DNA of 64,000 bases from a virus (lineage: Duplodnaviria > Caudoviricetes), in IMG/VR virus record IMGVR_UViG_3300014204_000185, positions 2,896 to 66,895 of that record; one strand, given 5' to 3'. The translations under genes were made by a program, and so were the position numbers. Shown here in pieces: positions 46,109 through 64,000 of this stretch (positions are counted from its first letter, which is position 1; each line of letters opens with the position of its first letter). Below the pieces are notes generated by a model that was not told the origin of the DNA, searched no databases, and saw only the letters and a list, made by a program, of their open reading frames with translations.

Positions 46109-46116
46109 CCGCAACC

Positions 46117-46760: not shown

Positions 46761-47218
46761 ATAAACGTGGATATTTTGGCGTAGGCATTTATCACGCCAA
46801 AACAGAGGCGAACATCGGGACGCTGTGGCGTTCTGCTCACAATTTCGGGGCGGCATTTATTTTTACCATCGGGAAACGATACAAAAAACAATCTTCCGAC
46901 ACCACGAAGGCATGGAAGACCGTTCCTCTATTCCACTACGCAACCTTCGGTGAGTTCTATGAAAACATTCCACACGATTGCCGCCTCATTGCGATTGAAC
47001 AAAGCGAGTCCTCTAAAAGCATTTCCTCTTTTCTGCATCCTGAACGGGCGATTTATTTACTTGGAGCCGAAGACCATGGCCTGCCAGGATCAATCCAAGA
47101 CGATTGTCACGCTATTATTCATATCGACACTCCGATGTGCCTAAATGTGGCAACGGCTGGATCAATTATTATGTACGACAGATCAATTAAACGCGGAAGG
47201 GAGTATCCAATACGATGA
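46757..47218 (+). CDS. SpoU/TrmH-family (SPOUT) RNA methyltransferase
   Basis: ANIGTLWRSA, LLGAEDHGL, CLNVATAGSIIMYDR. Confidence 0.88.
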   Translation: MNKRGYFGVGIYHAKTEANIGTLWRSAHNFGAAFIFTIGKRYKKQSSDTTKAWKTVPLFHYATFGEFYENIPHDCRLIAIEQSESSKSISSFLHPERAIYLLGAEDHGLPGSIQDDCHAIIHIDTPMCLNVATAGSIIMYDRSIKRGREYPIR

Positions 47219-47967: not shown

Positions 47968-48006
47968 CCCGCCTACTCGAATCCCTGATCGTTAAGGAGG
48001 TTTTAC

Positions 48007-48693: not shown

Positions 48694-48768
48694 TCGAAGC
48701 CCTGATCGTGATTATCGGATGGGCGATAGCAATCGCGCTGATCCGGTGGGATGGGTGGTGGATGTGAA

Positions 48769-49533
48769 ATGAGCTTAATTGAAAACGGCATATTCGGAAC
48801 GATTGACAAGGTGGCTGAAGCGATTCAGCGGATTAAGGATTTTGAACCGCCGGAAGGGTATTACGTTGCCTTTTCAGGCGGTAAGGATTCGGTTGTCATC
48901 CTCGATCTTGTTAAGCGTTCCAGGGTGAAGTTTGACGCTCATTACAATCTTACAACGGTTGATCCTCCCGAAGTTGTTTGGTTCATTCGGACATTCCCGG
49001 AAGTCCAGATTCATCATCCAGAAAAAACCATGTGGCAGCTTATCGTTGAAAACGGGATGCCACCGCTAAGACAAAGCCGATATTGTTGCCGAATCCTGAA
49101 AGAACAAGGCGGAAGAGATCGTCGCGTTTTAACGGGAATCCGTTGGGCGGAAAGCAATCGGCGTAAAAAAAGGGAACCCGAAGAGGATTGTTTTAAGGGG
49201 AAAGAGCATAAAACATACATACACCCTATTATTGGTTGGTCTAATGGCGAAGTATGGCAATATATACGAGAATACAAACTTTCTTATTGTTCACTTTATA
49301 ACGAAGGATGGAAGCGGCTTGGCTGTGTGTGCTGTCCAAATGCAGACCAAAAAAGACAGGCTAAACGGTGGCCGAAGATTGCGGACGCTTACCGCCGTGC
49401 CTGTATTCGAGCTTTCGATAAGGCAAAAAATGACGGTAAGCACAGAACATGGAAAAATGGCGATGAAATGTTTGAGTGGTGGATTTCGGGGCAAGGAAAT
49501 GGCGATCCCGACCAGACTATAATGTTTGAATAG
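48769..49533 (+). CDS. PAPS-reductase-family protein
   Basis: VAFSGGKDS, TTVDPPE, RYCC, TGIRWAES, HPIIGW, RLGCVCCP. Confidence 0.88.
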   Translation: MSLIENGIFGTIDKVAEAIQRIKDFEPPEGYYVAFSGGKDSVVILDLVKRSRVKFDAHYNLTTVDPPEVVWFIRTFPEVQIHHPEKTMWQLIVENGMPPLRQSRYCCRILKEQGGRDRRVLTGIRWAESNRRKKREPEEDCFKGKEHKTYIHPIIGWSNGEVWQYIREYKLSYCSLYNEGWKRLGCVCCPNADQKRQAKRWPKIADAYRRACIRAFDKAKNDGKHRTWKNGDEMFEWWISGQGNGDPDQTIMFE

Positions 49534-49689
49534 GAGTCCATTATGTTTCTAAAAGCAGTAGCTATTTATGGGGCGATAATCTCGATATTTTTCGGAATAA
49601 TGATGATCGTTACGAATGGGAGTTATTTCTCCATCTTTTGTTTCGCAATGGCACTATTTCAGATTTGGCTCTCAGTCAGTGATGTTTGA

Positions 49690-49929
49690 ATGATAACCCG
49701 AACAATCCAGTTCTGTATCGCCCTGTTCGCCTCGATGCTGATCGGGCTGGTCATCCTGATAAACTGCGTCATCCCGCCGCCGGTGAAGTGGTGGATGGAT
49801 GGAAGGCCGGTCGAGTCTCCGGAGTTTCACGGGGCGGCGAAGATCGAATATCATGTTGACGGCTCGGTGACGGCGCATAAGTGGCGGCATGGAATTTATA
49901 TCGAAATGTGGAAACGACGATGCGGATAA
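49690..49929 (+). CDS. hypothetical membrane-anchored protein
   Basis: N-terminal TM. Confidence 0.45.
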   Translation: MITRTIQFCIALFASMLIGLVILINCVIPPPVKWWMDGRPVESPEFHGAAKIEYHVDGSVTAHKWRHGIYIEMWKRRCG

Positions 49930-50149
49930 ATTGTTAATGGAAACGATAGTTAAAGCGTGAATGTGAGACCACGGAGATTGGAAAATGAAAAATGATGGAT
50001 GGACATGGAATGATTTAGCGGGTGAGTTGATGGCAAGGGGAATTGATCCAGATGAAGCATCAGACTTTTCATCGTATCTAAAACATCACACACCAGAGAT
50101 TGCGGCACATGAAATAGAAAAGTCGGTGGAGAGGGCGTGAGGCAAGTAT

Positions 50150-50470
50150 ATGCGCAACCAAGGGTTAGAAGTAAAAATTCAGGATGATGAAATCGTTATT
50201 CGGGTAGGAATTGATACCGTTAAATGGGCATTGGAACACCACGAGGAATCCCAGCCTTTCAATGAAGAGATTGACGACTATGAGCAGAAATGGATTGTCT
50301 CTGACCCGGTTGAGTTCGCCGAGGACGTTGTCCGCGCAATGGATGACGAAGCAGAGGACGGATCAACTCCTCTGTCGGATTTCCTCGACAAGATGTGCAT
50401 GGACGCTTTGGAAGACGGCAGTATCGGAACGGATGAAGCCCCGAAAGGAACAAGGGCGTTCGATGTATAA
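50150..50470 (+). CDS. acidic hypothetical phage protein
   Basis: L.V.I.DDEIVIRVGIDT...EDGST. Confidence 0.6.
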   Translation: MRNQGLEVKIQDDEIVIRVGIDTVKWALEHHEESQPFNEEIDDYEQKWIVSDPVEFAEDVVRAMDDEAEDGSTPLSDFLDKMCMDALEDGSIGTDEAPKGTRAFDV

Positions 50471-50512
50471 ATGGACACGCCTGGGCTATGAAATTTTATG
50501 GGAGCGGAGGGG

Positions 50513-51667
50513 ATGAAGATAATAAACGAGGGCGTGTTGGTTATAAAAAGTTGGTGCGAGAATCCCGAAGATGGGGCGGTTGAACAGGCAAAGAATCTCT
50601 CCCGGCTACCGTTCGCGTTCAGGCAGATTTGTCTTATGCCGGATACACATCAAGGATACGGAATGCCGATAGGTGGTGTTCTGGCGACGGACGGGGTTGT
50701 CGTTCCGAACGCGGTTGGGGTTGATATTGGGTGTGGAATGTGTGCCGTCAAAACATCGTTGACAGAAATATCCCTCGAAACTCTAAAGCGGATCATTGGA
50801 ACGATAAGAGTTGATGTTCCCGTTGGATTCAATAAACACGATAAGCCACAAGACGATGACCTAATGCCGAAGTCCCCGATGGGCGTAATCGCCAACAGGG
50901 AATACGAGAACGCCCGTAAATCGCTTGGAACTCTTGGCGGCGGGAATCACTTCATTGAGATCCAACGCGGGGATGACGGCCATATCTGGATCATGCTCCA
51001 CTCTGGAAGTCGCAATCTCGGTAAGCAAGTTGCTGATTACTACAACATGATCGCCATATCCTTAAACGAACAATACCTCAGTCGTGTTCCGAAAGAATGG
51101 GAGCTTGCGTTTCTTCCCATTTATGGCGAAGACGGTGAAGAATATTTAACGGAAATGCAATACTGTGTTGACTTTGCGTTCGTGAACAGACGCGCTATGA
51201 TAGACAAGATTCAGGCGGCTTTTATTGAGCACGTCGATCACGTCTCGTTTGAACCCATGATTAATATCGCCCATAACTACGCCAGAATAGAGCACCATTT
51301 TGGCAAGAACGTCATGATTCACAGGAAGGGGGCCACCTCGGCGCGTGACGGAGAGATTGGAATAATCCCCGGATCACAAGGAACGTCAAGCTATATCGTG
51401 CGCGGAAAGGGGAATCCGGAAAGTTTCATGTCGTGTTCTCACGGGGCGGGCAGGAAAATGGGGAGAAAACAGGCCGAAAGGACGCTTGATCTTGCCACGG
51501 AACAAAAACGACTTAATGATCGCGGCATCCTTCATTCCGTTCGAGGGATTCACGATCTTGACGAAGCATCTGGAGCATATAAAGACATTGGTGTGGTTAT
51601 GAAAGAACAGGAAGACCTTGTTGAAATCGTAACCAGACTTGAACCATTGGCGGTGATAAAGGGGTGA
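50513..51667 (+). CDS. rtcB: RtcB-family RNA ligase
   Basis: MPDTHQGYGMPIG, GVDIGCG, GTLGGGNHFIE, HSGSR, HNYA, HRKGAT, IPGSQG, SHGAGR, DEASGAYK. Confidence 0.95.
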   Translation: MKIINEGVLVIKSWCENPEDGAVEQAKNLSRLPFAFRQICLMPDTHQGYGMPIGGVLATDGVVVPNAVGVDIGCGMCAVKTSLTEISLETLKRIIGTIRVDVPVGFNKHDKPQDDDLMPKSPMGVIANREYENARKSLGTLGGGNHFIEIQRGDDGHIWIMLHSGSRNLGKQVADYYNMIAISLNEQYLSRVPKEWELAFLPIYGEDGEEYLTEMQYCVDFAFVNRRAMIDKIQAAFIEHVDHVSFEPMINIAHNYARIEHHFGKNVMIHRKGATSARDGEIGIIPGSQGTSSYIVRGKGNPESFMSCSHGAGRKMGRKQAERTLDLATEQKRLNDRGILHSVRGIHDLDEASGAYKDIGVVMKEQEDLVEIVTRLEPLAVIKG

Positions 51668-52068
51668 AGAAATCCAAGAAGCCAAAGTCCGAAAAAGACA
51701 AACTTGAAGAGGACTGCCTTGATCTGTGGTCATTGTGTGTCAAAACCCGTGACCGTAAATGTATGGTTTCTGGTAAGGACTATGACCTTCAAGGGCATCA
51801 TATCAGAAGCAGAACCCACAAGGTGACCTATCTTGACATTGAAAACGGGATGGCCCTTACAAGCGGAGTCCATTGCCTCCAGAAATTCAATCCAGAAAAA
51901 TTCCACGATCTGGTTATTGATGTGATCGGGGCCGAAGAATACGACCGGCTCAAAGAGAAATCGGGCAGAATTTGGAAGCCGACCGTTCCGTGGCTCAAAT
52001 TAATGAAAGAAGAACTCACCACAACACTTAAACGCTTGGAAGGCGAATACGGGAAGCTGGGGGGATAA
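51664..52068 (+). CDS. NinG/Rap-like His-Me nuclease
   Basis: WSLCVKTRD.KC..SG....QGHHI.SR....LDIENG..L. Confidence 0.7.
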   Translation: MKKSKKPKSEKDKLEEDCLDLWSLCVKTRDRKCMVSGKDYDLQGHHIRSRTHKVTYLDIENGMALTSGVHCLQKFNPEKFHDLVIDVIGAEEYDRLKEKSGRIWKPTVPWLKLMKEELTTTLKRLEGEYGKLGG

Positions 52069-52358
52069 TGGGAAAGAAGCAATATAAGCGAGGAATTCCG
52101 TTACTTGTTGATTGGATGGACGCAAACACCCCCCTTGATAGTGCGGGGTGGACTACAATGGACGAGGTAGAGAAACAAGACCCCAAATTCCACGTTCAAT
52201 CGATTGGATTTGTTGCCGGGATAAAGGGTGGATATCTGAAACTTGTGGGGGAGCAAAGCCAAAGCAAGAAATATGCCAAGGTGACATCAAGGACCATTAA
52301 CATACCAATATCGTGCATAATGTCTGCACGAACTCTGTTAATCAAGGAGGTAAAATGA
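52068..52358 (+). CDS. hypothetical phage protein
   Basis: LVDWMDA...GW...SIGF...IPISCI. Confidence 0.6.
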   Translation: MGKKQYKRGIPLLVDWMDANTPLDSAGWTTMDEVEKQDPKFHVQSIGFVAGIKGGYLKLVGEQSQSKKYAKVTSRTINIPISCIMSARTLLIKEVK

Positions 52359-52648
52359 CACCGACCGAATCGTTCAAGAAGAATCCGCTGAGGGAAGTAT
52401 TACAAATGGCCTACGCTCAGGCAATCGTCGGTAAGGGAAAGGAACGCCACGCTGAAGACAAACCCTTCGAAGATCAAGTTTGGGCTTCAATCACAAGGGC
52501 GGTTGGGATCGGCTTTCCTACCGGACAGGCGCTCAAAAAATGGAACGAGGCAAAGAGACTGTCGAAAGACTCCGCTATTCGTGAATTGCTTGGTGCCATA
52601 AACTACATCGCTATGGCGATCATCACGTTGATGAAGGAGGAAAAGTAA
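52355..52648 (+). CDS. hypothetical phage protein
   Basis: GKGKERHA, GQALKK, ELLGAINY. Confidence 0.65.
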   Translation: MTPTESFKKNPLREVLQMAYAQAIVGKGKERHAEDKPFEDQVWASITRAVGIGFPTGQALKKWNEAKRLSKDSAIRELLGAINYIAMAIITLMKEEK

Positions 52649-52848
52649 TGTTGACCGTCTATATCAAGAACGTGAAGACAATTAAGGACATCGCTGACTA
52701 CGAATACATCGTGATGGTCAATGCTGAGAAAATAGCTGAAGGGAAAATCGAGAAGCACGAACGGTCGGATGGATGGGCGCGACTTGTGAAGCGGATAGCG
52801 GAAAAATACATAGATTGTTCAATTTCAACAAACGCTGAAAAGGACTGA
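52648..52848 (+). CDS. hypothetical protein
   Basis: coupled ORF. Confidence 0.55.
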   Translation: MLTVYIKNVKTIKDIADYEYIVMVNAEKIAEGKIEKHERSDGWARLVKRIAEKYIDCSISTNAEKD

Positions 52849-52852
52849 TTGA

Positions 52853-53098
52853 ATGAAAGAAACCTTCAACGCCTTAGCGACCGAACTTTGTAGGAGGGTT
52901 GGCGCTCCATATCCGTCACCGAAGCCGATAAATCCGACCGACTACACATGGACTCAGTCCGAAGAAGACGACTACCGGGAATGGGCGATTAATCTCTTGC
53001 GATCAAAGGGGCCGTTGCGACGGATGGGGAAGAAATACGTCAGCGCGGTTATGGACACATTTTTAGCTAATTACGGGTGGATGGTGGAGGGGAAATGA
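52853..53098 (+). CDS. hypothetical protein
   Basis: coupled ORF. Confidence 0.55.
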   Translation: MKETFNALATELCRRVGAPYPSPKPINPTDYTWTQSEEDDYREWAINLLRSKGPLRRMGKKYVSAVMDTFLANYGWMVEGK

Positions 53099-53724
53099 TG
53101 GAAAATATGGTTGAGTTTGTTGGATTTCCGAAGATTGTAAGACTGTCCAGCGAGGTGATCGTTACGGAAAAAATCGACGGGACGAATGCACAGATTTACA
53201 TTCCCGGCCCGGAAGATATTTTCCCGCCATACGGTTTAACTCTCGATAAAACGACACACGGAATGTCCCTGCTTGTGGGTAGCAGAACCAGGTGGATAAC
53301 ACCCGAATGCGACAATCACGGATTCGCACGGTGGGCTTATGACCACGCCGAAGAATTGGTTACTTGCCTCGGTCCGGGTCGCCACTTTGGGGAGTGGTGG
53401 GGATCGGGGATTCAACGGGGTTACGGACTACCGAAAGGAGAGAAAAGATTCAGCCTGTTCAATACGCTACGGTGGGGAAGTGACCGAGATATGGAGAAAT
53501 ATCCGAATGATAAGCCGGATTGTTGCCATGTGGTTCCGGTTCTTTGGCGGGGTGTTTTTGACACCCAACAAATCGAAATGGAATTAGCTACATTGAAAAA
53601 TTGCGGAAGTGTCGCGGCTCCCGTCTTTATGAAACCGGAAGGGATTGTCGTCTATCACATCGCCGGAAACATAGCGTTTAAGAAAACAATCGGTGATGAC
53701 GGAAATAAGGGGGACAACCGATGA
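53095..53724 (+). CDS. compact Rnl2-like RNA ligase (adenylyltransferase domain)
   Basis: TEKIDGTNA, SRTRWI, FGEWWG.GIQ, FSLFN, VPVLWRG, EGIVV, FKK. Confidence 0.82.
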   Translation: MMENMVEFVGFPKIVRLSSEVIVTEKIDGTNAQIYIPGPEDIFPPYGLTLDKTTHGMSLLVGSRTRWITPECDNHGFARWAYDHAEELVTCLGPGRHFGEWWGSGIQRGYGLPKGEKRFSLFNTLRWGSDRDMEKYPNDKPDCCHVVPVLWRGVFDTQQIEMELATLKNCGSVAAPVFMKPEGIVVYHIAGNIAFKKTIGDDGNKGDNR

Positions 53725-53909
53725 CCACTTCCACCACACCGAGACTAATTTGCCCTGTTTGTAGTGGAAGCCATCTCGACTACCGACAGCCTGACGGCCT
53801 CTGTAAGTGCTTCACAAACATGAAGAAGATGAAGGCGGGGGATGATTGTGAAGTGGTTAATGACCTTATGGCGATGTTCGGGATGGGGAAGAAGGGTAAG
53901 GATGAATGA
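53721..53909 (+). CDS. small Cys-rich protein
   Basis: CPVC; stop overlaps both methyltransferase starts. Confidence 0.5.
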   Translation: MTTSTTPRLICPVCSGSHLDYRQPDGLCKCFTNMKKMKAGDDCEVVNDLMAMFGMGKKGKDE

Positions 53910-54666
53910 ACTGTCTCTCTTTTCAGGCGCCGGTGGCGGGTTACTCGGAACAATGCTTCTCGGTTTCCGACCCATCGGATACGTCGAATGGGACGACTAC
54001 TGCCAGCGAGTCATTGCCGCCAGAATCCGTGACGGAATCCTGCCCGATGCCCCTATCTTCGGCGACATCAAAACATTCATCAGTGAAGGGTACGCCGCAA
54101 GCTATACGGGATTGGTTGATGTCATTACAGCCGGATTTCCCTGTCAGCCGTTCAGTGTCGCTGGGGGACAACGAGGGGAAGATGATCCCCGCAATATGTG
54201 GCCACAAACGATTGAATGTATTCGCATCATACGACCCCGATTCGCATTCATGGAGAACGTCCCAGGCTTGCTTGCTAACCGATACATTAAGCGAATTTTC
54301 GGAGACTTGGCCGAAAGCGGGTACGATGCAAGATGGTGTTGCCTATCCGCTTCCCAAATCGGAGCACCGCATATCAGAGAAAGAGTCTGGCTACTTGCCT
54401 ACCCCGCAGAAAAGCGATGGAACGTTCAGGATGATTCGGCGCCCATTAAAACTACGCGGGAATGCTTACCGTATCAATTCAAATCAGGGTGTGGATGGAA
54501 ACGCGAAACTTGCGGACATAGCATGGAACGTGTGGGGTGGTCCTTTGAATCCGACATACGCGGAAGCGATGATGCTGTGGCCGCTGGAATGGACCGCCTT
54601 GCAGCCATTGGCAATGGACAAGTTCCAGCAGTGGTTGCAACAGCATGGAGGCTTTTAAGGGGTTGA
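53902..54666 (+). CDS. DNA C5-cytosine methyltransferase, alpha polypeptide
   Basis: motif I LFSGAGG, IV GFPCQPFS, VI ENV, VIII PHIRERVW, X AIGNGQVP; motif IX not seen. Confidence 0.88.
   Translation: MNELSLFSGAGGGLLGTMLLGFRPIGYVEWDDYCQRVIAARIRDGILPDAPIFGDIKTFISEGYAASYTGLVDVITAGFPCQPFSVAGGQRGEDDPRNMWPQTIECIRIIRPRFAFMENVPGLLANRYIKRIFGDLAESGYDARWCCLSASQIGAPHIRERVWLLAYPAEKRWNVQDDSAPIKTTRECLPYQFKSGCGWKRETCGHSMERVGWSFESDIRGSDDAVAAGMDRLAAIGNGQVPAVVATAWRLLRG
53906..54658 (+). CDS. overlapping-frame polypeptide, putative beta subunit of the C5 methyltransferase
   Basis: 250-aa stop-free alternate frame; ATGA-coupled to upstream stop; C-terminal LNPTYAEAMMLWPLEWT resembles motif IX. Confidence 0.65.
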   Translation: MNCLSFQAPVAGYSEQCFSVSDPSDTSNGTTTASESLPPESVTESCPMPLSSATSKHSSVKGTPQAIRDWLMSLQPDFPVSRSVSLGDNEGKMIPAICGHKRLNVFASYDPDSHSWRTSQACLLTDTLSEFSETWPKAGTMQDGVAYPLPKSEHRISEKESGYLPTPQKSDGTFRMIRRPLKLRGNAYRINSNQGVDGNAKLADIAWNVWGGPLNPTYAEAMMLWPLEWTALQPLAMDKFQQWLQQHGGF

Positions 54667-54989
54667 TGAAAAGTGACCAAATGGGTAGCTCCACTACCCA
54701 CCCGGTATCGAAACGTCAGCAAATGGCGCAATCTGCCGACGAATTTGTACCAATGTGTCGATGTTTGCTCAATTTATGGACACGTTCACCAGACGTGTAC
54801 ACGGCGCGGACATGAACACCGGCAGATGTGAATAAGTGAATGTATTTCTATCCAATTATCGGCAAAATTATAGTTTATGTGCCGATTATATGCGGTTAAG
54901 CCTATCTTGGGCGGGTGCATTGTATTGTTGGCATAATGGCTTGGTGGGGGATTTGGGGGAAATAGTGTGCAATAAAAGGGGAGGGATTA

Positions 54990-55439
54990 ATGAGGGAAAT
55001 TGAGTTTCGAGCTTGGGATAAGGTGAAACAGGAATGGGCTTTTGGTTATCCTGGTTGTGGAGGATTCCATCTTTTCGGAGAGCTACACTTGCTTGGCTAT
55101 CTACAAATAGAAAAATTAAATGATTATGTAGCGATGCAGTTCACCGGCCTGCGTGACAAGAACGGCGTCAAGATATTCGAGGGGGATATTGTTGAGTGTA
55201 CGCATTGGTTTTTTGATGGGAGTGAGATCGAGGAACATTTCCGCGCCCATGTTGGATTCCGCGATGGCTCATCCACGCTTGAGGGGATTAAAAGCAAATA
55301 TTACTCGGATTACACCGGAGAAAGTAATGGAGAGGGCATTTGCTGGATTGGTTCTATAAATTACAACGAAGAAGATTATGAAGTCACCAGCAACATCTAC
55401 AAGAATAATCTTGGTTTGACCGTTAACCCTAAAGTTTGA
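54990..55439 (+). CDS. YopX-family protein
   Basis: MREIEFRAWDK, MQFTGLRDKNGVKIFEGDIV, YEV..NIY. Confidence 0.88.
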   Translation: MREIEFRAWDKVKQEWAFGYPGCGGFHLFGELHLLGYLQIEKLNDYVAMQFTGLRDKNGVKIFEGDIVECTHWFFDGSEIEEHFRAHVGFRDGSSTLEGIKSKYYSDYTGESNGEGICWIGSINYNEEDYEVTSNIYKNNLGLTVNPKV

Positions 55440-55573
55440 AAATGTATCAGAAAGAGTAGTGGTGCTACCAATGTACAGACAAAGATAAACTTGGATTTGT
55501 CAGGAATGTTGGTGTGTTTTTCATCGGAGGAATATGCAGAAAAGAACCGCCCACCCCATACAAATGGCCTAAT

Positions 55574-55855
55574 ATGGGTAATGCAAAATACGAGAAGTGG
55601 CATAAGGAAGCGGGGCTTTGTGTGAAATGTCCTGAACCGGCTACGCATGGCGTTAGTTGTAGAAAACATTGGCTCGCCAAGAAGGTCCGAGATCGGAGGT
55701 CGCGGGAGAAAATGAGGGTTATTTTAATCGCACAAGGTTTGTGTGGACAATGCCGCGCACCTCTTGAACCAGAGGTCGATGAAGATACTAAGTGTTGCCA
55801 AAACTGCCGTGAACACGTGGGTCGCGTAAATGAAAGGAGAGGAAATTACAAATGA
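55574..55855 (+). CDS. Cys-rich Zn-finger protein
   Basis: GLCVKC, GLCGQC, CQNC. Confidence 0.55.
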   Translation: MGNAKYEKWHKEAGLCVKCPEPATHGVSCRKHWLAKKVRDRRSREKMRVILIAQGLCGQCRAPLEPEVDEDTKCCQNCREHVGRVNERRGNYK

Positions 55856-56727
55856 AACTATCAACAATATTGAACATGCCGAATGAGTTTGAATTAGTGC
55901 TATTTGGGGACAACCAAGAAGGTAACTGTGCCTCGGCTTCCGATAAATATCGGGAGTGTATTGATTATATCTGTTCAAAGCCGAATAGATATGGGGTTCA
56001 CATGGGAGACGCTTGCGACGCTTTTTGGTGTGACGACATTAAGCGATACGACCCCATGACGACAAAGATCACTCCAGCAGAGCAAAAGAAGCGATTTGTG
56101 AAAGACACTGCGCCATTAGCAAAGACAGGAAGACTACTCACCATCCTAAAGGGAAACCACGAAAAGGCTATTGAGAGAAAGTACGGTGACTTCGCGGCTG
56201 AGATTTGCGAAAATCTCCAAGAGTTCGGAAAAGGTGTCTTCCCTATCACTGGAACGTACACCAATAAGTTGGAATTTCGTGACAAGAAAAACTCATTAAT
56301 GTTCAAGGGATACTTCACACATGGACGAAAGTCTCTTTCATCTGTATCACCAGACCCGCACCGCCGGAAGGCTTATTTACAATTTAGATTAAAGCGCCTC
56401 CTTGAAAACATGGCCGGAGACTGCATTCTTATGGCGAGAGGCCATAGCCACATTGTTTTAGTCACACAACCCATTCCTACTGTCTATCTGACCTCTGAAA
56501 AAGGGAAGCTGAAACAGAATTACACGCAGGCTGGAAGTGGCAAGTCCGGATCATACATCCCCCCTGACCATAGATGGTACGGATGCACCGGATCTTTCTT
56601 GAAGTCTCAGGAGTTGGATGTTGAAACATACTCTGAACTTGCAGAATACGAACCGACGGAACTTGGTTATCTAATAGCGGTAATTAAAGATAGGACCGTT
56701 GTGGATCTGAAAGAAGTGAAAATTTAG
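55852..56727 (+). CDS. calcineurin-like metallophosphoesterase
   Basis: LFGDNQ, HMGD, KGNHE, FTHG, RGHSH. Confidence 0.82.
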   Translation: MKLSTILNMPNEFELVLFGDNQEGNCASASDKYRECIDYICSKPNRYGVHMGDACDAFWCDDIKRYDPMTTKITPAEQKKRFVKDTAPLAKTGRLLTILKGNHEKAIERKYGDFAAEICENLQEFGKGVFPITGTYTNKLEFRDKKNSLMFKGYFTHGRKSLSSVSPDPHRRKAYLQFRLKRLLENMAGDCILMARGHSHIVLVTQPIPTVYLTSEKGKLKQNYTQAGSGKSGSYIPPDHRWYGCTGSFLKSQELDVETYSELAEYEPTELGYLIAVIKDRTVVDLKEVKI

Positions 56728-56819
56728 CCAGTAGGTATCGCCACCCGATACTTCATGGAGATGTTTCATTCGCATGGGGTGACACTTTTCGTCACTTTCT
56801 GTAAACGAAAGGGATGTAG

Positions 56820-57602
56820 ATGGACTGGATAAAGGTTAAACCAAATCATATCCTTTATGAATATAATGATCTGTCTGACTCTGAGTTTAGGGCATGGATA
56901 AAAATTATGGCATTAACCGCCCAAATTGAACACGAACCAACAAGAGATCAGATGCTTCAAATTGTCCATTATAAGACCCTTGACAGCCTTCAACAAAAGA
57001 TCAACACAAGGTCAATAGACCTTCAATACATCGTCAATAAGGTCTTAATAGACGTTCAATACACCCTTAATCAAAAAAAGTATTGGCGTGACCAGAAGAA
57101 GCAAAAACGGGCATTTACCCAAAATGTCCCTATGGACATCCAAGGGAAGTCTCACAACAGATTAGATAAGATTAGATTAGATAAGAATATAAAGAAAGAA
57201 AAGAAAAAAAAAATTGAGATTGTTTTACCGTCATGGATACCAAAAGAACCGTGGGATGGTTTTGTTGAAATGCGAAAAGAGATAAAAAAACCACTCACCG
57301 GCAGGGCGATTAAATTAGCTATTACAAAACTCCAAGAGTTGAAAGAATTGGGTAACGACCCTGGAAAGGTTCTCGACCAATCCACGATGTCAAAGTGGCA
57401 AGGGCTGTTCGAGCTTCAAAAGACGAAAATTGTAAAAAGATTTGGAAATGAAAAACCCGGAACGACATACCAAAACACGGGGCGCGATATTAGAAACTAT
57501 AAACCAGAAGAACGTCCAGAAATGACCGAAGAGGAACGGCGGCGGAACATTGAAAGGGCTCAAGCATTAAGCCGCTCCATAGGTACGAGGGCCAGTCCGT
57601 GA
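56820..57602 (+). CDS. phage replication initiator (replisome-organiser-like)
   Basis: N-terminal WIKV wHTH; IRLDKIRLDK linker; C-terminal W..FVEMRK.IKKPLT.RA...DQS....WQGLF. Confidence 0.78.
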   Translation: MDWIKVKPNHILYEYNDLSDSEFRAWIKIMALTAQIEHEPTRDQMLQIVHYKTLDSLQQKINTRSIDLQYIVNKVLIDVQYTLNQKKYWRDQKKQKRAFTQNVPMDIQGKSHNRLDKIRLDKNIKKEKKKKIEIVLPSWIPKEPWDGFVEMRKEIKKPLTGRAIKLAITKLQELKELGNDPGKVLDQSTMSKWQGLFELQKTKIVKRFGNEKPGTTYQNTGRDIRNYKPEERPEMTEEERRRNIERAQALSRSIGTRASP

Positions 57603-57799
57603 CCAGAAGTGAAGCGTGGGAAGACATTGGATATCGAGTGGAGAAGATGGATAAGACGTATAAATTACACAAATCATCGGACGCTGAAAGAATTAAGATT
57701 GAATATATTAGGGGATTTGAGAAGGGGAAGGTTAGGTGGTTGAGGGTTGATATCGCTCAAGACCTAATCAGTAGGGGATACGCGAAAGAGGTTAAATAG
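57599..57799 (+). CDS. hypothetical protein
   Basis: GTGA-coupled ORF. Confidence 0.5.
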   Translation: MTRSEAWEDIGYRVEKMDKTYKLHKSSDAERIKIEYIRGFEKGKVRWLRVDIAQDLISRGYAKEVK

Positions 57800-57981
57800 A
57801 TCATGTGGCAAATTAGGGAATGGGTACTTGGTGTAATTGGCGGATTTAATCACGACGATGCCCATGGATTGATTTCCCCCCCCTTCACGCTGCTCCAACT
57901 ACCCCCAAACAGCCATGCGGCAATTTAGGGGCATTAAATGGGAGATTCAATGAATGCCACAAACCAACATTCAAGTCAACA

Positions 57982-58146
57982 CTACCGGAAATCGGGTAGT
58001 GACTGGTATGCCACTTTCGACGGTATGTCGATGCTGGTGGTATGCCCATCACGCGGTATGTCGTTTAGATATGCCTCAATATCCACCGTTTCCGGGTCGA
58101 TCCCCTTTTCCCTTAGTTCCGCATCAAGATTAGCCATCTTGCTCAT
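57982..58146 (-). CDS. small hypothetical protein
   Basis: 54-aa ORF read by hand, ATGA-coupled, RBS. Confidence 0.45.
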   Translation of the reverse strand: MSKMANLDAELREKGIDPETVDIEAYLNDIPRDGHTTSIDIPSKVAYQSLPDFR

Positions 58147-58310
58147 GGTAGCCCCCTTTCATTTAATAGGTCACAAAGCCGGTGCGCTTCTTCTTCCGAG
58201 TTCGCCCTAAACACGATCGCCCCATTAGTCACGTTCCACCACTCCCAAAAGGATTCATCGTTATGTCCGGTATCATTCCCATATTCAACCGGCCATTTAA
58301 TCTTTGACAT
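58143..58310 (-). CDS. hypothetical protein
   Basis: GGAGG RBS; YGNDTG..DESFWEWW. Confidence 0.55.
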   Translation of the reverse strand: MSKIKWPVEYGNDTGHNDESFWEWWNVTNGAIVFRANSEEEAHRLCDLLNERGLP

Positions 58311-58485
58311 GGTATGCCTCCCTTTCAAATATCTCCGACTTTATTACGAGCTTCCGTCTGGCCGCAGCTATCCACTGCCGGACGGGTTCCCTTGTTGTCC
58401 CCATGATCCGGGCGATCTCTTTCAGGGTATGGCCTCTTTGTCGCAGGTCAAAGGCTTTGCGCTGGTATGGGGTTAGGTCGGTCAT
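58297..58485 (-). CDS. sigma70 region-4/LuxR-like HTH protein
   Basis: LTPYQRKAFDLRQRGHTLKEIARIMGTTREPVRQ. Confidence 0.75.
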   Translation of the reverse strand: MTDLTPYQRKAFDLRQRGHTLKEIARIMGTTREPVRQWIAAARRKLVIKSEIFEREAYHVKD

Positions 58486-58705
58486 GGGTTTATTCTTCAA
58501 AATCGCCAGCAATATCTTGGCATAATTTAATCAACTTTTCCCTCGCTTTCGCTTCTTCGTTCGATAGCTCATCGTCAATATGTTCTACGCAATCTCGAAG
58601 GTCTTGGAGTGTATTTATAAACCTACAATAACTCATATTTCCCATGACGTTCCCCTTTCATCTCTCTGGAAGGTTTCAGCCTTCCGTCTGGTATGGCTTT
58701 AACGA

Positions 58706-58939
58706 CTATTTCGCCCTGTACCCCACCGCCACCAGTATGACCCTCCGGCAGTATGCCGCATCGGCGAACGGTGATGGTATGGCCCTCTTTGAGATATGAT
58801 CCCATTCGTCGTCATTAAAGGCTATCATAACCTTTCTTTTCCGATACTTGGTTGATGGCCTCGGCCCTCTTGGTGCGCCCCTGCCGCGTTTGGGCTTTTC
58901 AGTCGCCGGGACACTTTCGGTGTTCGTTGAAATATCCAC
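58706..58939 (-). CDS. ribbon-helix-helix-like protein
   Basis: KRGRGAP; VMIAFNDDEWDHI...AAYCRRVIL. Confidence 0.55.
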   Translation of the reverse strand: MDISTNTESVPATEKPKRGRGAPRGPRPSTKYRKRKVMIAFNDDEWDHISKRAIPSPFADAAYCRRVILVAVGYRAK

Positions 58940-58950
58940 AACACCCCCTT

Positions 58951-59211
58951 TTATTTCAGTATGACCGATCCAATTTTCCGGTTCTCGTTTGCCGTTCTGA
59001 TTGCCGTTTTATACGCGCCCCGGAGCCGTCCAAGCTCGACCCTGAGCCGCATATTGTCGTCGCATAGCGTGGCGTTTTCGGAAATCAACCCCTCGATCAT
59101 CGCCCCCTTTTCGTCCACGTTATCCCGCATTGCCGCGTTTGCCGATTTCGCGTCGGCCAGATCGCGGCATACTCGATCATATTTTTCCGTCCAGTCGTTT
59201 TCCATTTTCAT
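58951..59211 (-). CDS. coiled-coil hypothetical protein
   Basis: RBS; heptads. Confidence 0.55.
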   Translation of the reverse strand: MKMENDWTEKYDRVCRDLADAKSANAAMRDNVDEKGAMIEGLISENATLCDDNMRLRVELGRLRGAYKTAIRTANENRKIGSVILK

Positions 59212-59306
59212 TTTCTCCCTTCTGTGTTAAGGTTCAATTCCCCTGGGTCCATGCTGTAATAGGGCGGCTTTCCCTTCGCCGTAAAAGCCGGGGGACTGGT
59301 TATGTG

Positions 59307-59471
59307 CTATATGGAGATAACATCAATATCGTTTCCGTTTTCATCGGTTATCTCAATTGTACAACCGGGATTATATTCCCGCTCGCAGTCCTCTTGGTCG
59401 GGTATGTCCACCCATGTGTTGTCGTCATGCCAAACAGCCCCGCTCGCCTCGGTGATTTTTAGTTTATACAT
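59307..59471 (-). CDS. small acidic hypothetical protein
   Basis: AGAGGGGAG RBS. Confidence 0.5.
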   Translation of the reverse strand: MYKLKITEASGAVWHDDNTWVDIPDQEDCEREYNPGCTIEITDENGNDIDVISI

Positions 59472-59722
59472 AGCTCCCCTCTTTCTGGCCTTGTGGCCGG
59501 TATGGATCATTTTGTTACCGTCAACAACATGATCCGGTATGCACCATTTTGCTGACATCAACGGTATGGTTTAATCGGTATGCCCCTCGCCTTCATCCGG
59601 TTTAACCCGGAAATCTTTTATTCTCGGAATTTGATGGCGATAGCTCTTACACGCGGGACAGGCGACCGGCACTCTATCCCCCCTCGGCTCCCAGGTATGC
59701 CCACATCTCAGACATTTGTATT

Positions 59723-59950
59723 TCATGCGCTCACCTCCGCTTGTAATAGGTTAAATGTAATTCCCCTTTCGCATGGGTCTGTGTACCATTCCATGATACA
59801 CGGCTGATTATTGCCGCATTTATTACACTCTAACGGGTCCGGCCTGTAACCTCGCCCCCAATTCGTTCCGGTATGGAAGGTTTGAGCAAACATCTTGCCG
59901 CTTGCCCGATATGCCTTTATTCTTCCACGTTGATTCCGAAAACCAGCCAT
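59723..59950 (-). CDS. hypothetical protein (CxxC)
   Basis: RBS GGAAGGG; CNKCG. Confidence 0.5.
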   Translation of the reverse strand: MAGFRNQRGRIKAYRASGKMFAQTFHTGTNWGRGYRPDPLECNKCGNNQPCIMEWYTDPCERGITFNLLQAEVSA

Positions 59951-59985
59951 TTCCCTTCCTCCTCCCCGGCTTGGCCGGTATGTAG

Positions 59986-60294
59986 TTAAGCGGGTATGCC
60001 GCTATGATGAAATTCGCTTCCCTCTGACGGGTCCATTTCAGCCCGGTATGGAGACAGGGCTTCGTCAAGGTATGCGTCAAATTCCGGCGTTTCGCTTGCC
60101 CCTGGATATGCTACATGGCCCCCTTCGTGGGTGATACAATCCGGCTGGTATGTCTCTCTCGTGGCCGCAAGGGAATAACCGTCATCGTCCACTGATTCCC
60201 TTAGATTGTCGTGGTCAACCAGATAAATCTCGCAAGGTTCCGTTGTCGTAATTCCCGTAATACACCCACCGCTCACTTCAATCATGATCTTCAT
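59986..60294 (-). CDS. hypothetical protein
   Basis: AAAGGAG RBS; MKIMIEVSGG...YLVDHD. Confidence 0.6.
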   Translation of the reverse strand: MKIMIEVSGGCITGITTTEPCEIYLVDHDNLRESVDDDGYSLAATRETYQPDCITHEGGHVAYPGASETPEFDAYLDEALSPYRAEMDPSEGSEFHHSGIPA

Positions 60295-60357
60295 CGGTAT
60301 TTCTCCTTTCTGGTATGCCACTTATGGCAAGTTTCCGGCGTTATTGCTGGGATGTAG

Positions 60358-60588
60358 TTATGCCTTCAGCGCCGCCGCCATTTCAGCCATTGATGTCCTT
60401 TTTAACAGGCAGTGGTCAATCCAGAGCGGATCAACCCTATGGACGGTCTCAATAACCATCGCCGGTATGCCGTTGTCCTCAAAGCGGTCAAGGCAATCAA
60501 CCGCCCGCCCATAGTGTCGGTGGGTATGTCCGCAACAACCCTCTTCGGTCAGTGTGATAAATCTCGGCTTGCTATACGTTGTTCTCAT
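60358..60588 (-). CDS. hypothetical protein
   Basis: GAAAGGAG RBS; CCGHTH. Confidence 0.55.
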   Translation of the reverse strand: MRTTYSKPRFITLTEEGCCGHTHRHYGRAVDCLDRFEDNGIPAMVIETVHRVDPLWIDHCLLKRTSMAEMAAALKA

Positions 60589-60683
60589 GGCCAGATCTCC
60601 TTTCATTCCCTGTCGGGCATAATTGCCCCGGTATGCCTATTGACTCCGCGTTTATTCCTGAGCGGGTTATGTCAATTCGTGGT

Positions 60684-60762
60684 TTGGTTTTTTTAATACG
60701 GCTATTTAAAAAACCAATGAAATCATTAAAACGGTTTTTTAATCCCCCATATTAAAAAAACC
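60684..60762. repeat. two tandem AT-rich imperfect palindromes
   Basis: TTGGTTTTTTTAATA/TATTTAAAAAACCAA and GGTTTTTTAAT/ATTAAAAAAACC. Confidence 0.8.
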
Positions 60763-60769
60763 AATTCCC

Positions 60770-61036
60770 TTATAAGTTATATGCAGCTTCCCGAATGTCA
60801 TCAATCCTATTGTCGCGTCCCTCTTCGCAGCACCGGCCCCGGCAGTCGCCACGGTGTAGGCAATAGCGCCCAAATTCAAACATCGCATGGGCCAGCTTCA
60901 CCCTTTCGGGACTACTGTCACGTTCCATCCGATCAATGAAATCCGGGTATGTCTCTTCGGTTCCCTTGCCGATTGCGACGGCTGCTGATTCCAGCATATT
61001 CCAGACCTTCGCTTTTTTGATAGTTGCTTTTCTCAT
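60770..61036 (-). CDS. hypothetical protein
   Basis: GAAAGGAG RBS. Confidence 0.55.
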   Translation of the reverse strand: MRKATIKKAKVWNMLESAAVAIGKGTEETYPDFIDRMERDSSPERVKLAHAMFEFGRYCLHRGDCRGRCCEEGRDNRIDDIREAAYNL

Positions 61037-61064
61037 GGTCAAATCTCCTTTCAATTCAATGTGT

Positions 61065-61415
61065 TTATTCCCGTTCTGGTATGGCCTCCGCTTTGGCTAT
61101 GGCGGCGCAGGCCGTATCTATTTCCGGACCATGCGTGCGGTTGTCGGTTATCATGTCCAGTAATCCTCGACACGCCCCCAGCAGATCCGGCGCGGCGGCT
61201 ATTAAAAATCCATTCGCCCTTGCAGTTTCGGCTTGTTTTCCGCACCATTCCGCTTTGTCAAAATCCTTTCGCGGCTCGCTGGCCGCATACGCCTGGGAGT
61301 TTAGCCATCGGCAATACATTGTTTCCGCTACCGTTTCGCAAGCTCCCCTTATTCCGCAAGTAATCACTCCAAGTTCATCGACCTTCCACGGTCCCGGTGT
61401 TGCTTTCGTTTTCAT
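61065..61415 (-). CDS. conserved phage protein of the TPGPW...IAAAPDLL type
   Basis: TPGPWKV; ANGFLIAAAPDLL. Confidence 0.7.
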   Translation of the reverse strand: MKTKATPGPWKVDELGVITCGIRGACETVAETMYCRWLNSQAYAASEPRKDFDKAEWCGKQAETARANGFLIAAAPDLLGACRGLLDMITDNRTHGPEIDTACAAIAKAEAIPERE

Positions 61416-61604
61416 GGTATGTCCTTCTTTCCCCGCTGATGCGGTATGTTAGATTGTTTCAACGACTCCCTTGTAATGCTTCGCCATGCCTCGTGCAGAT
61501 TGTATTGTTGATGCGTAAAGAATGTTACCCCAAACCGACGACTGCACGATGACCCTGTATTTTGCCCATGTTTTCATGCTCTTTCCCCTTTCCCGTTTCC
61601 GGTG

Positions 61605-62060
61605 CTATGGTATGGCCTCGACACTCACGGCCTGCCTCATCACGTCCGGCCCGTCAACGTCGCCAAAGTTGACCCATTGCCCGACAAAATACTTTTGCGC
61701 GTCGGCAAGCGTAACGCCCGCCGCCATGCTTTTTGATTGTTTCGACCCGTCCGAGTATGTCACGCGGTATGAGGTAAGCGGTGCAAATTCCACTAAATCT
61801 GTTATGTCGATCATCTCGATAAACGCCGGATCGTTCACCATCCGCCCAAATTCGCCAGACTCCCAACCGTTGAAAATGTAATATCGGTCATTATAGACAT
61901 CTATATAGACATTTTCTGAATTTTTCGGGCTTGTCACTATCCCGGCTGCCGTGTATTTGTCATGATTATATTTCCGCTGGACGGGCATTAAGCCACTCTC
62001 CGCTATGATATTGGCGATTTCCCTTTTTCCGTATGTGTTTAGCTTAATTATTTTCCGCAT
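61605..62060 (-). CDS. hypothetical protein, C-terminus possibly DarA_C-like
   Basis: YRVTYSDG...AQKYFVGQWVNFGD...MRQAVSVE; family match recalled, not searched. Confidence 0.5.
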   Translation of the reverse strand: MRKIIKLNTYGKREIANIIAESGLMPVQRKYNHDKYTAAGIVTSPKNSENVYIDVYNDRYYIFNGWESGEFGRMVNDPAFIEMIDITDLVEFAPLTSYRVTYSDGSKQSKSMAAGVTLADAQKYFVGQWVNFGDVDGPDVMRQAVSVEAIP

Positions 62061-62307
62061 TTCTCAACCCTCCCGGCTTGCGCCTGTTAAAGTTTGATTC
62101 TCTTTTTTACGATCTTAACCGCATATTCGGGTTGATTTTCCCGGTATGCCTTCAGGTCCGCTTTCGCCTCTTTCCGGGTCTGGTATGCCGAGACCTCTTC
62201 CCATCCCTCCGCCGTATGCTGATGTATTTGATATTCGTCTATCATTTTGCGCTTATACATTTTTCAATCCTTTCCAGCGTATCCGTCGCGGCCCGGTATG
62301 GTATGGG

Positions 62308-62478
62308 TTAATAATCGTTTGCCCTTGCGATTGCCCCTTGTTCGCCGTTTAGCTCCATAATGCGGGTTGATGAGTGCTCCCTTGTATAGAGTCCATATTC
62401 CCGGATCAAGGCAAGCGCGCTTTCCGCTTTTTTGATTTCTATTCGGCCATCATCATATTTGAGTTTGAAATATTTCAT
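62308..62478 (-). CDS. small hypothetical protein
   Basis: GGGAGGGG RBS. Confidence 0.55.
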   Translation of the reverse strand: MKYFKLKYDDGRIEIKKAESALALIREYGLYTREHSSTRIMELNGEQGAIARANDY

Positions 62479-62569
62479 CTTCCCCTCCCTCTGGTATGTT
62501 GCCCCTCGCCACGGCGACATTGCCGCTGGGTGCCTATCCTGTTTGCCGGATACGCTCCGGCGGGCGGTA

Positions 62570-63184
62570 TTATGCAACTCCACTGATCCGGTCAATCTCC
62601 TTGCCGTCATACAACACAACGGTCACGCTGTCACGATCCCGCCAATAGACAGGTATGTGCTGCCGTGTCAACTGGTCGGCGGTCTCCCGGTATAGTATGC
62701 GGGTATATGCCCCGTCATCCTCGCGTCTCCAATAATCGTTGTCGCCGCCACGTTGTGCAAGGTTGCCCTTGCCGTCGTTGTTTGCCGTCCGGTATGTCGT
62801 GACCGTCTCAATCCGGGTTGTGATCCGGCGGGCAATCTCAAGCGGGATTATAACCTTGCCCGCAATAATCAGGCCGTCTGTACACTCGGCCCCGGTCCCG
62901 TTGCGCCCATCATGATATGAGGTATTAGCCACAGACATCAGCTTGCCGTACTGTACACCAGTAAGGTCAGCGTAGGCCGTCGGATACGCCGCCTTAATGT
63001 TGCGCTCCACATGCTCTACGGTTGCCGGTCCCTTGTGACCATTGTAATGCTGCATTGCCCTTGATCGCTTGTTGCCCTTTGGCCTTGCCGTGCCGATAGG
63101 ATTGTTGGCGCAATCCAAGCCGTAGTTTGCCAATGAGCATGTTGAGCAATCCCCCTGATTTTGCGTGCAATATCCCTTTTTCAT
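62570..63184 (-). CDS. hypothetical protein with N-terminal Cys cluster
   Basis: CTQNQGDCSTCSL...C; RBS. Confidence 0.6.
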   Translation of the reverse strand: MKKGYCTQNQGDCSTCSLANYGLDCANNPIGTARPKGNKRSRAMQHYNGHKGPATVEHVERNIKAAYPTAYADLTGVQYGKLMSVANTSYHDGRNGTGAECTDGLIIAGKVIIPLEIARRITTRIETVTTYRTANNDGKGNLAQRGGDNDYWRREDDGAYTRILYRETADQLTRQHIPVYWRDRDSVTVVLYDGKEIDRISGVA

Positions 63185-63261
63185 TTTCTCCCTCATTTCT
63201 TCCCGTCTCTCCGGGGTGTCTGTTGTTGCGGGTTAATCCCCTTAAGCCTGCCATCGATCCT

Positions 63262-63480
63262 CTATTGTCTGGTCGTGCCTGGCATAATCCTGATCATTTG
63301 CCCGATCAGGTCAACGCAGATTCTGAGCTCTTTTTCAGCCCTCGCCGCCGCCGCCAACGTGTTGTTGTCAAATTCTATGTACGCCGCCTGCGCATCGTAG
63401 GCGGCGTTACGAGCGGCGGTTAGAGATGCATCCATTTTAGTCAGGATGTTATCGATCTCCTGTTTGATCCTGTCTCTCAT
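63262..63480 (-). CDS. Ala-rich coiled-coil protein, first gene of right early operon
   Basis: AGGAGG RBS. Confidence 0.6.
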   Translation of the reverse strand: MRDRIKQEIDNILTKMDASLTAARNAAYDAQAAYIEFDNNTLAAAARAEKELRICVDLIGQMIRIMPGTTRQ

Positions 63481-63533
63481 TGCCCCATCCTCCTATTTTT
63501 TATTTGTGTTGCTGTTGCCTAATGTTTGATTGC

Positions 63534-63561
63534 ATCCTACCATATTATCATCATCTGTCAA
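63534..63561 (-). promoter_or_regulatory. sigma70-type leftward promoter
   Basis: TTGACA-16 bp-TAGGAT with extended TG. Confidence 0.6.
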
Positions 63562-63805
63562 GCATTATTTTAAATTATTTTTATCAGGCGCAAAGTCAGG
63601 CCAGTCCTGCGTTTGAGATGATGGCATGAAATAAGCATGAGAAAATAAATTATAAGCAGGCGCAAGAAAACCAGAAGCATCAAGAACGCTATGCAAGAAC
63701 AATACCAGAACCGTTTCAGGAATTATGTCAATTCACGAAAAGCAATCCACCAGACATTGGCACAGATCATGCAAGAGTAGAACGAACGTACTACAAAATA
63801 TTTCC

Positions 63806-63834
63806 TTGACTTTGGCAGAGAATGGCATTATAAT
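63806..63834 (+). promoter_or_regulatory. sigma70-type rightward promoter
   Basis: TTGACT-17 bp-TATAAT. Confidence 0.7.
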
Positions 63835-64000
63835 TGCAGACGTGATGGAAACCATAAGCAAGGATCAAGCCAAAAATGACAAGAAGAACAAACAAAAGCA
63901 TAATAAATTCACGATCAAGCGCAATCAAGAGGAATAATCAACAATAACAATGAGATGGTGGGGGGTAGGTCAAATCTCTATGAGTATCGCAAGGTTAACA

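Follow-up and report, generated by a model that had tools for sequence, protein, structure and literature searches.

A dense, one-strand array of the word GGTATG beside the terminase end of a landfill phage: a possible Chi-like field

Why should a phage repeat one six-letter word 38 times, always on the same strand, within less than 5 kb of its genome? The question is raised by a tailed phage (Duplodnaviria; Caudoviricetes) from a landfill metagenome, the sequencing runs of which were analysed as contigs. The window considered here is the whole 64,000-nt stretch covering bases 2896-66895 of the single 66,895-bp record IMGVR_UViG_3300014204_000185; the end of the window is the end of the record, and positions are those of the window unless stated otherwise. 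The word is GGTATG. On the + (top) strand of the window it occurs 40 times, and 38 of these copies lie at 58005-62796 (the last one starts at 62791), antisense to an operon of small leftward genes. The pattern of this array most resembles, by analogy, the clusters of Chi sites by which some phages control the host enzyme that degrades DNA ends, and a Chi-like role is the reading that we tentatively place first. New here are the purge of the word from the same strand elsewhere, and the recurrence of the array on the same strand in two relatives.

Number, polarity and exactness of the copies

The array and its surroundings comprise the following features.
58005-62796, + strand: GGTATG array, 38 exact copies by count, consensus M-Y-GGTATG-B-C.
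58005-58060, + strand: densest sub-cluster, four copies spaced 17, 17 and 16 bp, at the distal (3') end of the leftward operon.
57982-63480, - strand: leftward operon made up of about 20 small genes, almost all of them orphans and with good ribosome-binding sites; the array is antisense to it.
62797-64000, no strand: terminal 1.2 kb free of the word by count, with two promoter-proximal genes and a divergent regulatory region of roughly 520 bp.

An earlier note on this DNA, made by eye, had reported 38 + strand copies in 4.8 kb and no CATACC, the reverse complement, on the + strand of the array. Both counts are reproduced, and the enrichment and the polarity, now computed, are both strong. The density is 7.9 copies per kb, with 38 top-strand and no reverse copies over 4.8 kb, while a block of 5.6 kb is expected to contain from 1.3 (order-1 Markov model) to 4.2 copies (order-2). 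GGTATG has the highest local enrichment of all hexamers in the 66.9-kb genome, 38 of its 40 copies falling within 5 kb; the hexamers ranked next reach a local count of 21, and all of them come from a coding tandem repeat of 24 bp. As the record starts 38 nt before an HNH-terS-TerL gene cassette, the array occupies the last 2-9% of a map drawn with the terminase on the left, and the same 38 of 40 top-strand copies sit in these last 2-9% of the record. The note had also mentioned scattered copies elsewhere. This holds for CATACC, which occurs 14 times on the + strand of the window, always outside the array; the + strand word itself is significantly depleted there, its two further copies being at 34287 and 43958.

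The tandem repeat behind the second tier of enriched hexamers (CGACAGAGGAATTTCCC..., 18 copies at 44100-44545) lies inside an open reading frame (ORF) of 355 amino acids (aa) at 43599-44666 (- strand) that has a weak DUF7666 match, and it would encode an 8-residue peptide repeat.

The core of the word is exact, as every variant with one mismatch has at most 5 copies, compared to 38 for GGTATG. Like a Chi-type site, the word is thus short, exact and asymmetric, with weak flank preferences that stretch it to about 8-10 nt (extended consensus M-Y-GGTATG-B-C). The spacing between copies is near-exponential (coefficient of variation 0.97), with no helical phasing. No second conserved element was found within 45 nt of the copies, which makes a promoter of the -35/-10 or -24/-12 type unlikely, and neither a longer repeat unit nor a paralogous gene family underlies them. 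Together, the exact core, the random spacing and the lack of a partner element point to sites read singly by a scanning enzyme, and not to a cooperative protein array.

Eleven copies are in the scarce intergenic DNA of the operon, and 27 are in coding sequence (on the antisense strand), distributed over frames 0, 1 and 2 as 6, 12 and 9. The respective peptide contexts are His-Thr, Ser/Pro/Thr/Ala-Tyr-x and x-Ile-Pro, and at 58311 and 61416 CATACC stands immediately 5' of an ATG. The earlier observation that copies occupy intergenic DNA, the space before the start codon at these two positions and all three frames is therefore borne out in every part. Among the 36 peptide contexts of array genes able to encode CATACC, 27 (75%) do so, compared to 4 of 95 (4%) in the rest of the genome; moreover, such permissive contexts are four times commoner in array proteins than elsewhere. 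Synonymous-codon shuffles of the array genes retain 4.5 +/- 1.9 copies, while 25 are observed. Selection acts on the DNA letters, and is close to saturation.

The densest sub-cluster lies about 400 bp past a replication gene of the lambda O type. It overlaps a perfect E. coli Chi, GCTGGTGG, at 58033-58040 on the + strand, as had been noticed before, though with one top-strand and two bottom-strand occurrences in the genome this octamer is at chance level. Literature searches on the GGTATG hexamer itself returned primer sequences only.

Recurrence in relatives and the same-strand purge

BLAST searches of the array region for near and distant similarity against 50,697 phage records gave no match. 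The equivalent polarised word, on whose presence in relatives the earlier proposal had been made to depend, recurs in two related metagenomic phages. In G213 (IMG/VR 3300032884_000122; capsid 83% identical) there are 14 top-strand copies within 0.9 kb at the contig end, and in L323 (IMG/VR 3300025326_000639; found via the TerL of the G213 type) there are 25 within 2.4 kb, also at the contig end, so that both arrays are cut off. Both are antisense in leftward operons of small genes, 2.8-3.1 kb upstream of terS in an HNH-terS-TerL cassette. The orientation relative to this cassette is the same in all three phages with arrays, for which we infer the termini and the direction of packaging. The flanks of the copies are alike too: of the 77 sites in total, 68 have Y at position -1, 76 have a nucleotide other than A at +6, and about 62% have C at +7. 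The G213 record (L219) carries GACGCTCTTCCGATCT as its last 16 bases at the array-side contig end (the first 16 as oriented here), which looks like an Illumina adapter remnant in the public assembly.

The genes underneath the three arrays are mostly different. Array-operon genes of G213 and L323 are not homologous to those of the landfill phage, apart from a zinc ribbon and one 54-aa protein, which are weakly shared. Two small proteins encoded within the array of the landfill phage matter for what follows.
59571-59726, - strand: zinc-ribbon protein, 51 aa, four cysteines, with a homologue in all three array phages.
58297-58485, - strand: stand-alone helix-turn-helix (HTH) protein of the sigma-70 region-4 type, 62 aa (PF08281, E 1.8e-8; PF04545, E 2.7e-8).

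Of the proteins encoded in the array region, the zinc ribbon alone has homologues in all three phages (identity 38-41% between the landfill phage and G213/L323, and 91% between G213 and L323), and weak homologues occur also at four loci without arrays. The sigma region-4 HTH was not found in the available parts of the G213 and L323 arrays, and TerS and TerL of the landfill phage have no usable match in G213. As the same word with the same flanks is present in three phages whose array genes are almost all unrelated, a shared host factor is the simplest common reader.

Among other array proteins, the one of 151 aa (61605-62060, - strand) has five metagenome homologues, 51-65% identical, and both its word-bearing peptide contexts (Ser/Ala-Tyr-Arg and the C-terminal Ala-Ile-Pro) are conserved in the five. 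For a 116-aa array protein, the search for homologues gave weak Pseudomonas phage matches only. Inside the L323 array (L323:1002-1394, - strand), a 130-aa protein matches the Thoeris inhibitor Tad4 weakly, below the threshold (E 0.0018), which is a hint of anti-defence genes in these early operons.

Other relatives lack the array in the sequence available. The contigs of the capsid relatives G003-G007, in which no array was seen, end 0.3-1.8 kb upstream of the terminase cassette, short of the expected array start; a four-copy cluster in G006 was rejected, being on the sense strand of a low-GC tail-fibre module. Among 160 TerL-based loci, the array was found only in L323, which is likewise alone among the 30 TerL-type relatives with 2.2-10 kb of upstream DNA. 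Loci with relatives of the O-like gene, 31 from metagenomes and 10 from IMG/VR, among them a 48 kb genome that is 99% complete, have neither a GGTATG field nor any other dispersed polar word; candidate word fields at these loci turned out to be coding or iteron tandem repeats. Conversely, no O-like gene was seen in the available G213 and L323 sequence. Pattern scans of IMG/VR for three close copies were uninformative, since the matches listed were mostly in-frame Gly-Met-Pro coding repeats. On a contig that encodes a distant O-like homologue (L140:11023-11570), about 15 tandem 11-bp units (tatgTTGTATC) form three blocks, an iteron or centromere-like array unrelated to GGTATG.

Outside the array, the word is removed from the same strand. 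In the two rightward gene blocks (47 kb) there is no top-strand GGTATG, with 10.5-11 copies expected (Markov orders 1-2), which places it at rank 14-24 of 4096 hexamers by depletion. Nearly all words that are more depleted are palindromes or parts of degenerate palindromic sites, as in restriction avoidance. Synonymous-codon shuffles of the rightward genes contain 11.1 +/- 2.8 copies, and none of 500 shuffles reaches zero. The reverse orientation, CATACC, is mildly low in the rightward genes (3 observed, 6.6 expected), and the sense strand of the leftward block B has 10 copies of GGTATG, compared to 5.5 expected. Since the word is absent from rightward genes, yet present on the sense strand of leftward block B, the purge follows the DNA strand and not the transcript.

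The same purge is seen in related phages. In G003, G004 and G005 (capsid 79-86% identical), taken together, the top strand has one GGTATG, while 32.8 are expected, so that only GGATCC is depleted more strongly among the hexamers; the bottom strand has 15, with 14.3 expected. Six more stretches with a total length of 56 kb (G212, G213 and L323 outside their arrays, G215, G217 and G220) have 2 top-strand copies, with 21.0 expected (P about 2e-7), and 11 bottom-strand copies, with 10.1 expected. In all nine related phages there are 3 top-strand copies compared to 54 expected, and the reverse orientation occurs at its normal frequency. No depletion is seen in more distant relatives, the capsids of which are 52-66% identical.

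Palindromic hexamers are strongly avoided in the rightward blocks of the landfill phage (window 1-32500 and 46000-57900), for example GGATCC (0 observed, 19 expected), GCCGGC (0 and 16), CGATCG (0 and 15) and CCCGGG (0 and 14), and CAATTG, TTCGAA and TGATCA are almost missing. The avoidance of GGATCC is common to the relatives. Palindrome avoidance points to heavy restriction pressure on the phage.

Neighbouring genes and genome ends

Around the array, the following features bear on its interpretation.
38885-41879, - strand: recombination module with RecT, a PDDEXK exonuclease (DUF3799) and an SbcC-like AAA_23 ATPase, given as context.
56820-57602, + strand: replication-organiser (lambda O-like) gene, convergent with the operon; homologues elsewhere are without the motif.
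63534-63561, - strand: sigma-70-like promoter (TTGACA, 16-nt spacer, TG-n-TAGGAT) from a consensus scan only, candidate driver of the leftward operon.
63806-63834, + strand: divergent promoter-like site, from a consensus scan only.

The record opens 38 nt before an HNH-like gene, which overlaps terS (Terminase_4) and is followed by TerL (PF03354/PF20441), portal, protease and HK97-fold capsid genes, the order of an HK97-type cos cassette. The HNH-type endonuclease ORF (genome bases 39-344, left of the window) has the pattern CxxC...DH...CxxCH and aligns with the HNH of G213; it has no Pfam match at E 0.01. At the other end, a Logan contig, assembled independently from the source run, likewise breaks off at 63999. 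The divergent region of roughly 520 bp spans the record ends and is the sole intergenic room there, so that cos is probably inside it.

The O-like gene is directly left of the array, and the consensus scan found no rightward promoter-like site on that side. The first two genes of the operon (62994-63480) have no copies of the word, and the first 740 nt of the operon are free of it. Both GC skew and AT skew are negative in the operon region. Its only sizeable gap is filled by two adjacent AT-rich hairpins at 60684-60765 (TTGGTTTTTTTAATA / TATTTAAAAAACCAA and a near copy 47 nt later), which could be a bidirectional terminator or a structural element splitting the operon. The phage also encodes two DNA methyltransferases, and no integrase or repressor genes were seen in it. 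Contigs identical to it (0 differences in the pieces listed, window 46000-64000) are present in a groundwater metagenome from a different study; one phage genotype occupies two habitats.

Possible readers of the word

A Chi-like polar field is the reading that we rank first, with a rough probability of 0.45, in view of the exact core with its random spacing, of the saturation, of where the array lies and how it is oriented, and of the recurrence despite differing local genes and terminases. According to this reading, the array would be a cis-acting, orientation-dependent recognition field for a host enzyme, which would enter linear phage DNA, or a concatemer end left by the terminase, at the right end and track leftward. 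The likeliest enzyme would be a helicase-nuclease of the RecBCD/AddAB type, and YGGTATGB would be the Chi-like sequence of the host. With the terminase drawn on the left, the word reads 5' to 3' on the top strand, the active orientation for an enzyme that comes in at the right end. Each copy would be an independent, imperfectly recognised site, and the high density may ensure that the enzyme gives up degradation and becomes recombinogenic or inactive a few hundred bases into the array, which would protect the remaining genome and feed recombination-dependent concatemer formation. In this account, we infer which enzyme reads the word, where the DNA physically ends and what the phage gains. The earlier note had gone further, suggesting that the array shields the end that enters first. 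The geometry of that idea holds as far as can be judged from the sequence, but the last 1.2 kb are free of copies, so that a literal shielding of the entering end is not suggested by the layout.

The closest known cases are phages with terminally clustered, co-oriented Chi sites, described by Zheng, Casjens, Davidson, Amundsen and Smith (Genome Res 2025; PMC12315714) for the cos phages LLS and MD8. In the E. coli phage LLS, 20 of 23 Chi sites are in the orientation active for RecBCD from the right end and are clustered there, and in the P. aeruginosa phage MD8 there are 32 top-strand and no bottom-strand sites (PMC12315714). Our recount of MD8 gave the same 32 and 0, with the densest stretch (13 per 5 kb) antisense in a leftward early operon, the last site 3.4 kb from the right end, and top-strand sites also scattered across the genome. 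As in these phages, the word of the landfill phage is short, exact and asymmetric, and no other word of the same length is as frequent in the genome. Again as here, when the map is drawn with the terminase on the left, the top strand bears nearly all of the copies in LLS and every copy in MD8, and the copies gather toward the right end and fall inside genes regardless of gene orientation. MD8 shares, in addition, the densest stretch antisense in a leftward early operon, and a site-free terminal part, in its case of 3.4 kb. Flanking bases influence real Chi as well (PMC5041463).

The differences are also clear. Here the word has six letters, or perhaps eight (YGGTATGB), and no relation to any known Chi; its density is 3-10 times higher (7.9-16 per kb, compared to at most 2.6 per kb); and its copies are confined to 7% of the genome, with the same-strand word purged elsewhere, whereas LLS and MD8 also have scattered sites. 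Chi-rich phages are mostly without a recombination module of their own, though a minority have both (PMC12315714).

Several observations weigh against a Chi-like field. GGTATG is no known Chi, and the genome shows no enrichment of the Chi words used by E. coli, Pseudomonas, Bacillus, Lactococcus, Staphylococcus and Haemophilus. In candidate hosts, namely four metagenome-assembled genomes holding capsid relatives and 201 genomes of one phylum, none of them a confirmed host, the word is not over-represented (ratio to control 0.7-1.65). The phage has RecT, an exonuclease and an SbcC-like ATPase of its own, which sets it apart from the LLS class, defined by the lack of such a module and of a RecBCD inhibitor. 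The array ends 1.2 kb before the record end and is co-extensive with most of one operon, so that a transcription-linked role could be imagined. Finally, Chi does not predict the same-strand purge in the rest of the genome and in related phages. The purge is a separate result, which would need a new explanation. To our knowledge, a depletion ranked beside restriction palindromes has not been reported for Chi.

A polar cis element other than Chi is the next reading, which we regard as doubtful though worth serious attention. A conserved factor, from the host or the virion, would read it as the whole genome is traversed in one direction (at entry, packaging or rolling-circle replication); the element would be useful only in the last few kb and harmful elsewhere on the same strand. 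Such an element would explain the saturated array together with the family-wide same-strand purge, unlike Chi.

It is unlikely that the copies are binding sites for a protein encoded by the phage, either the HTH protein (58297-58485) or the zinc ribbon (59571-59726), which would coat the early operon late in infection or in immune cells as a polar roadblock or insulator. The known parallel comes from cluster A mycobacteriophages, whose immunity repressor binds as a monomer to many asymmetric 13-bp sites, termed stoperators, and stops elongation there (PMC9283540), which establishes that monomeric repressors can act in this way. By its sequence, the 62-aa HTH is a candidate motif reader, as its type reads a six-base -35 element as a monomer and it is encoded inside the array, while the zinc ribbon is the one protein common to the three arrays, and the array covers most of one operon. 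The likeness to stoperators extends to the many asymmetric sites, the fixed orientation rule, the small HTH encoded nearby and the potential block to RNA polymerase. However, stoperators are 13 bp long, and a genome has some 20-35 of them along its full length, mostly between genes and with an orientation that depends on the direction of transcription on both arms, while here a core of 6-8 nt is confined to one operon, mostly inside codons, and both its orientation and its depletion follow the DNA strand (0 copies in the rightward sense, 10 in the sense of block B). The exact core, random spacing and saturation inside codons are likewise unusual for regulator sites, which are few, degenerate and intergenic as a rule. 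In addition, no HTH of this kind was found in what is available of the G213 and L323 arrays, zinc-ribbon homologues occur at the four array-free loci, and stoperators belong to temperate phages, while no lysogeny genes (integrase or repressor) were seen here.

The word could also act in RNA, as CAUACC in early mRNAs (bound by an RNase or an RNA-binding protein that times the early genes) or as GGUAUG in a rightward antisense or late-leader transcript running across the early operon, but we consider this improbable. The array is indeed within one transcription unit, its copies cluster near ribosome-binding sites and start codons (CATACC-ATG at 58311 and 61416; CATACC just upstream of a ribosome-binding site in L323), and GGUAUG is missing from all rightward (late and middle) mRNAs. 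On the other hand, CAUACC is not clearly avoided in other mRNAs (3 compared to 6.6 expected), GGUAUG is not avoided in leftward block B mRNAs (10 compared to 5.5), the first 740 nt of the operon are copy-free, and the scan revealed no rightward promoter-like site left of the array. The earlier suggestion of a CAUACC element in early mRNA is weakened by the purge tracking the DNA strand instead of the transcript.

About as improbable is a signal read by the virion machinery as the genome passes in one direction, packaged from left to right or ejected right end first: a braking field preparing termination before cos, or a stop like the first-step transfer of T5. This is alone among the ideas in predicting both the position before the right end and the same-strand purge, and the array, about 7% of the genome beside its end, is similar in size to the first-step-transfer segment of T5. 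However, the word is identical in G213, where TerS and TerL have no usable match, TerL relatives with 3-10 kb of upstream DNA are array-free except for L323, and 4.8 kb with random spacing is unlike cos or pac elements. Nor are we aware of any terminase or portal that is braked by a specific sequence.

Still less probable is an asymmetric site of a host Type III or Type ISP restriction system that needs convergent sites, with one orientation purged and the terminal array serving as a decoy or arising as a by-product. In T7, all EcoP15I sites are in one orientation, so that one-orientation purging is a known solution to Type III restriction; the landfill phage is similar in that one orientation of a short asymmetric word is removed from most of the genome, where palindromes are avoided too, and the top-strand depletion ranks beside the palindromes (14-24 of 4096 here, and second after GGATCC in three relatives). 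T7, however, shows bias without enrichment, while here one orientation is saturated in one block and the other persists elsewhere. The orientations coexist, with 40 top-strand and 14 bottom-strand sites in place of a single orientation, so that convergent pairs exist, and many more would arise after circularisation; positive selection to 75% saturation is left unexplained. The decoy idea of the earlier note also lost ground, as the purge tracks the DNA strand and not the transcript.

Last, the copies could scarcely be iterons of the O-like initiator, with an origin at 58005-58060 and the other copies titrating or handcuffing it: four direct copies spaced by 16-17 bp do lie about 400 bp past the O-like gene, but they share only the hexamer and no 17-20 bp unit (iterons are tandem repeats of 17-22 bp at the initiator gene), contigs with O-like homologues of 40-61% identity, including the 99%-complete 48 kb genome, have no word field, and the G213 and L323 arrays adjoin HNH-terS, with no O-like gene seen in the available sequence.

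If the Chi-like reading is true, the sequence that controls the nuclease and marks recombination hotspots in an uncultured anaerobic host lineage could be read directly from its phages. Terminal Chi clusters, a strategy described recently for lambdoid phages that infect enterics and pseudomonads, would then also be used by HK97-like phages of landfill and groundwater communities; the clusters would be much denser there, and one phage that carries them would have a recombinase of its own. Under either reading, Chi-like or other polar element, GGTATG is a compact, testable handle that could mark this phage group for host assignment.

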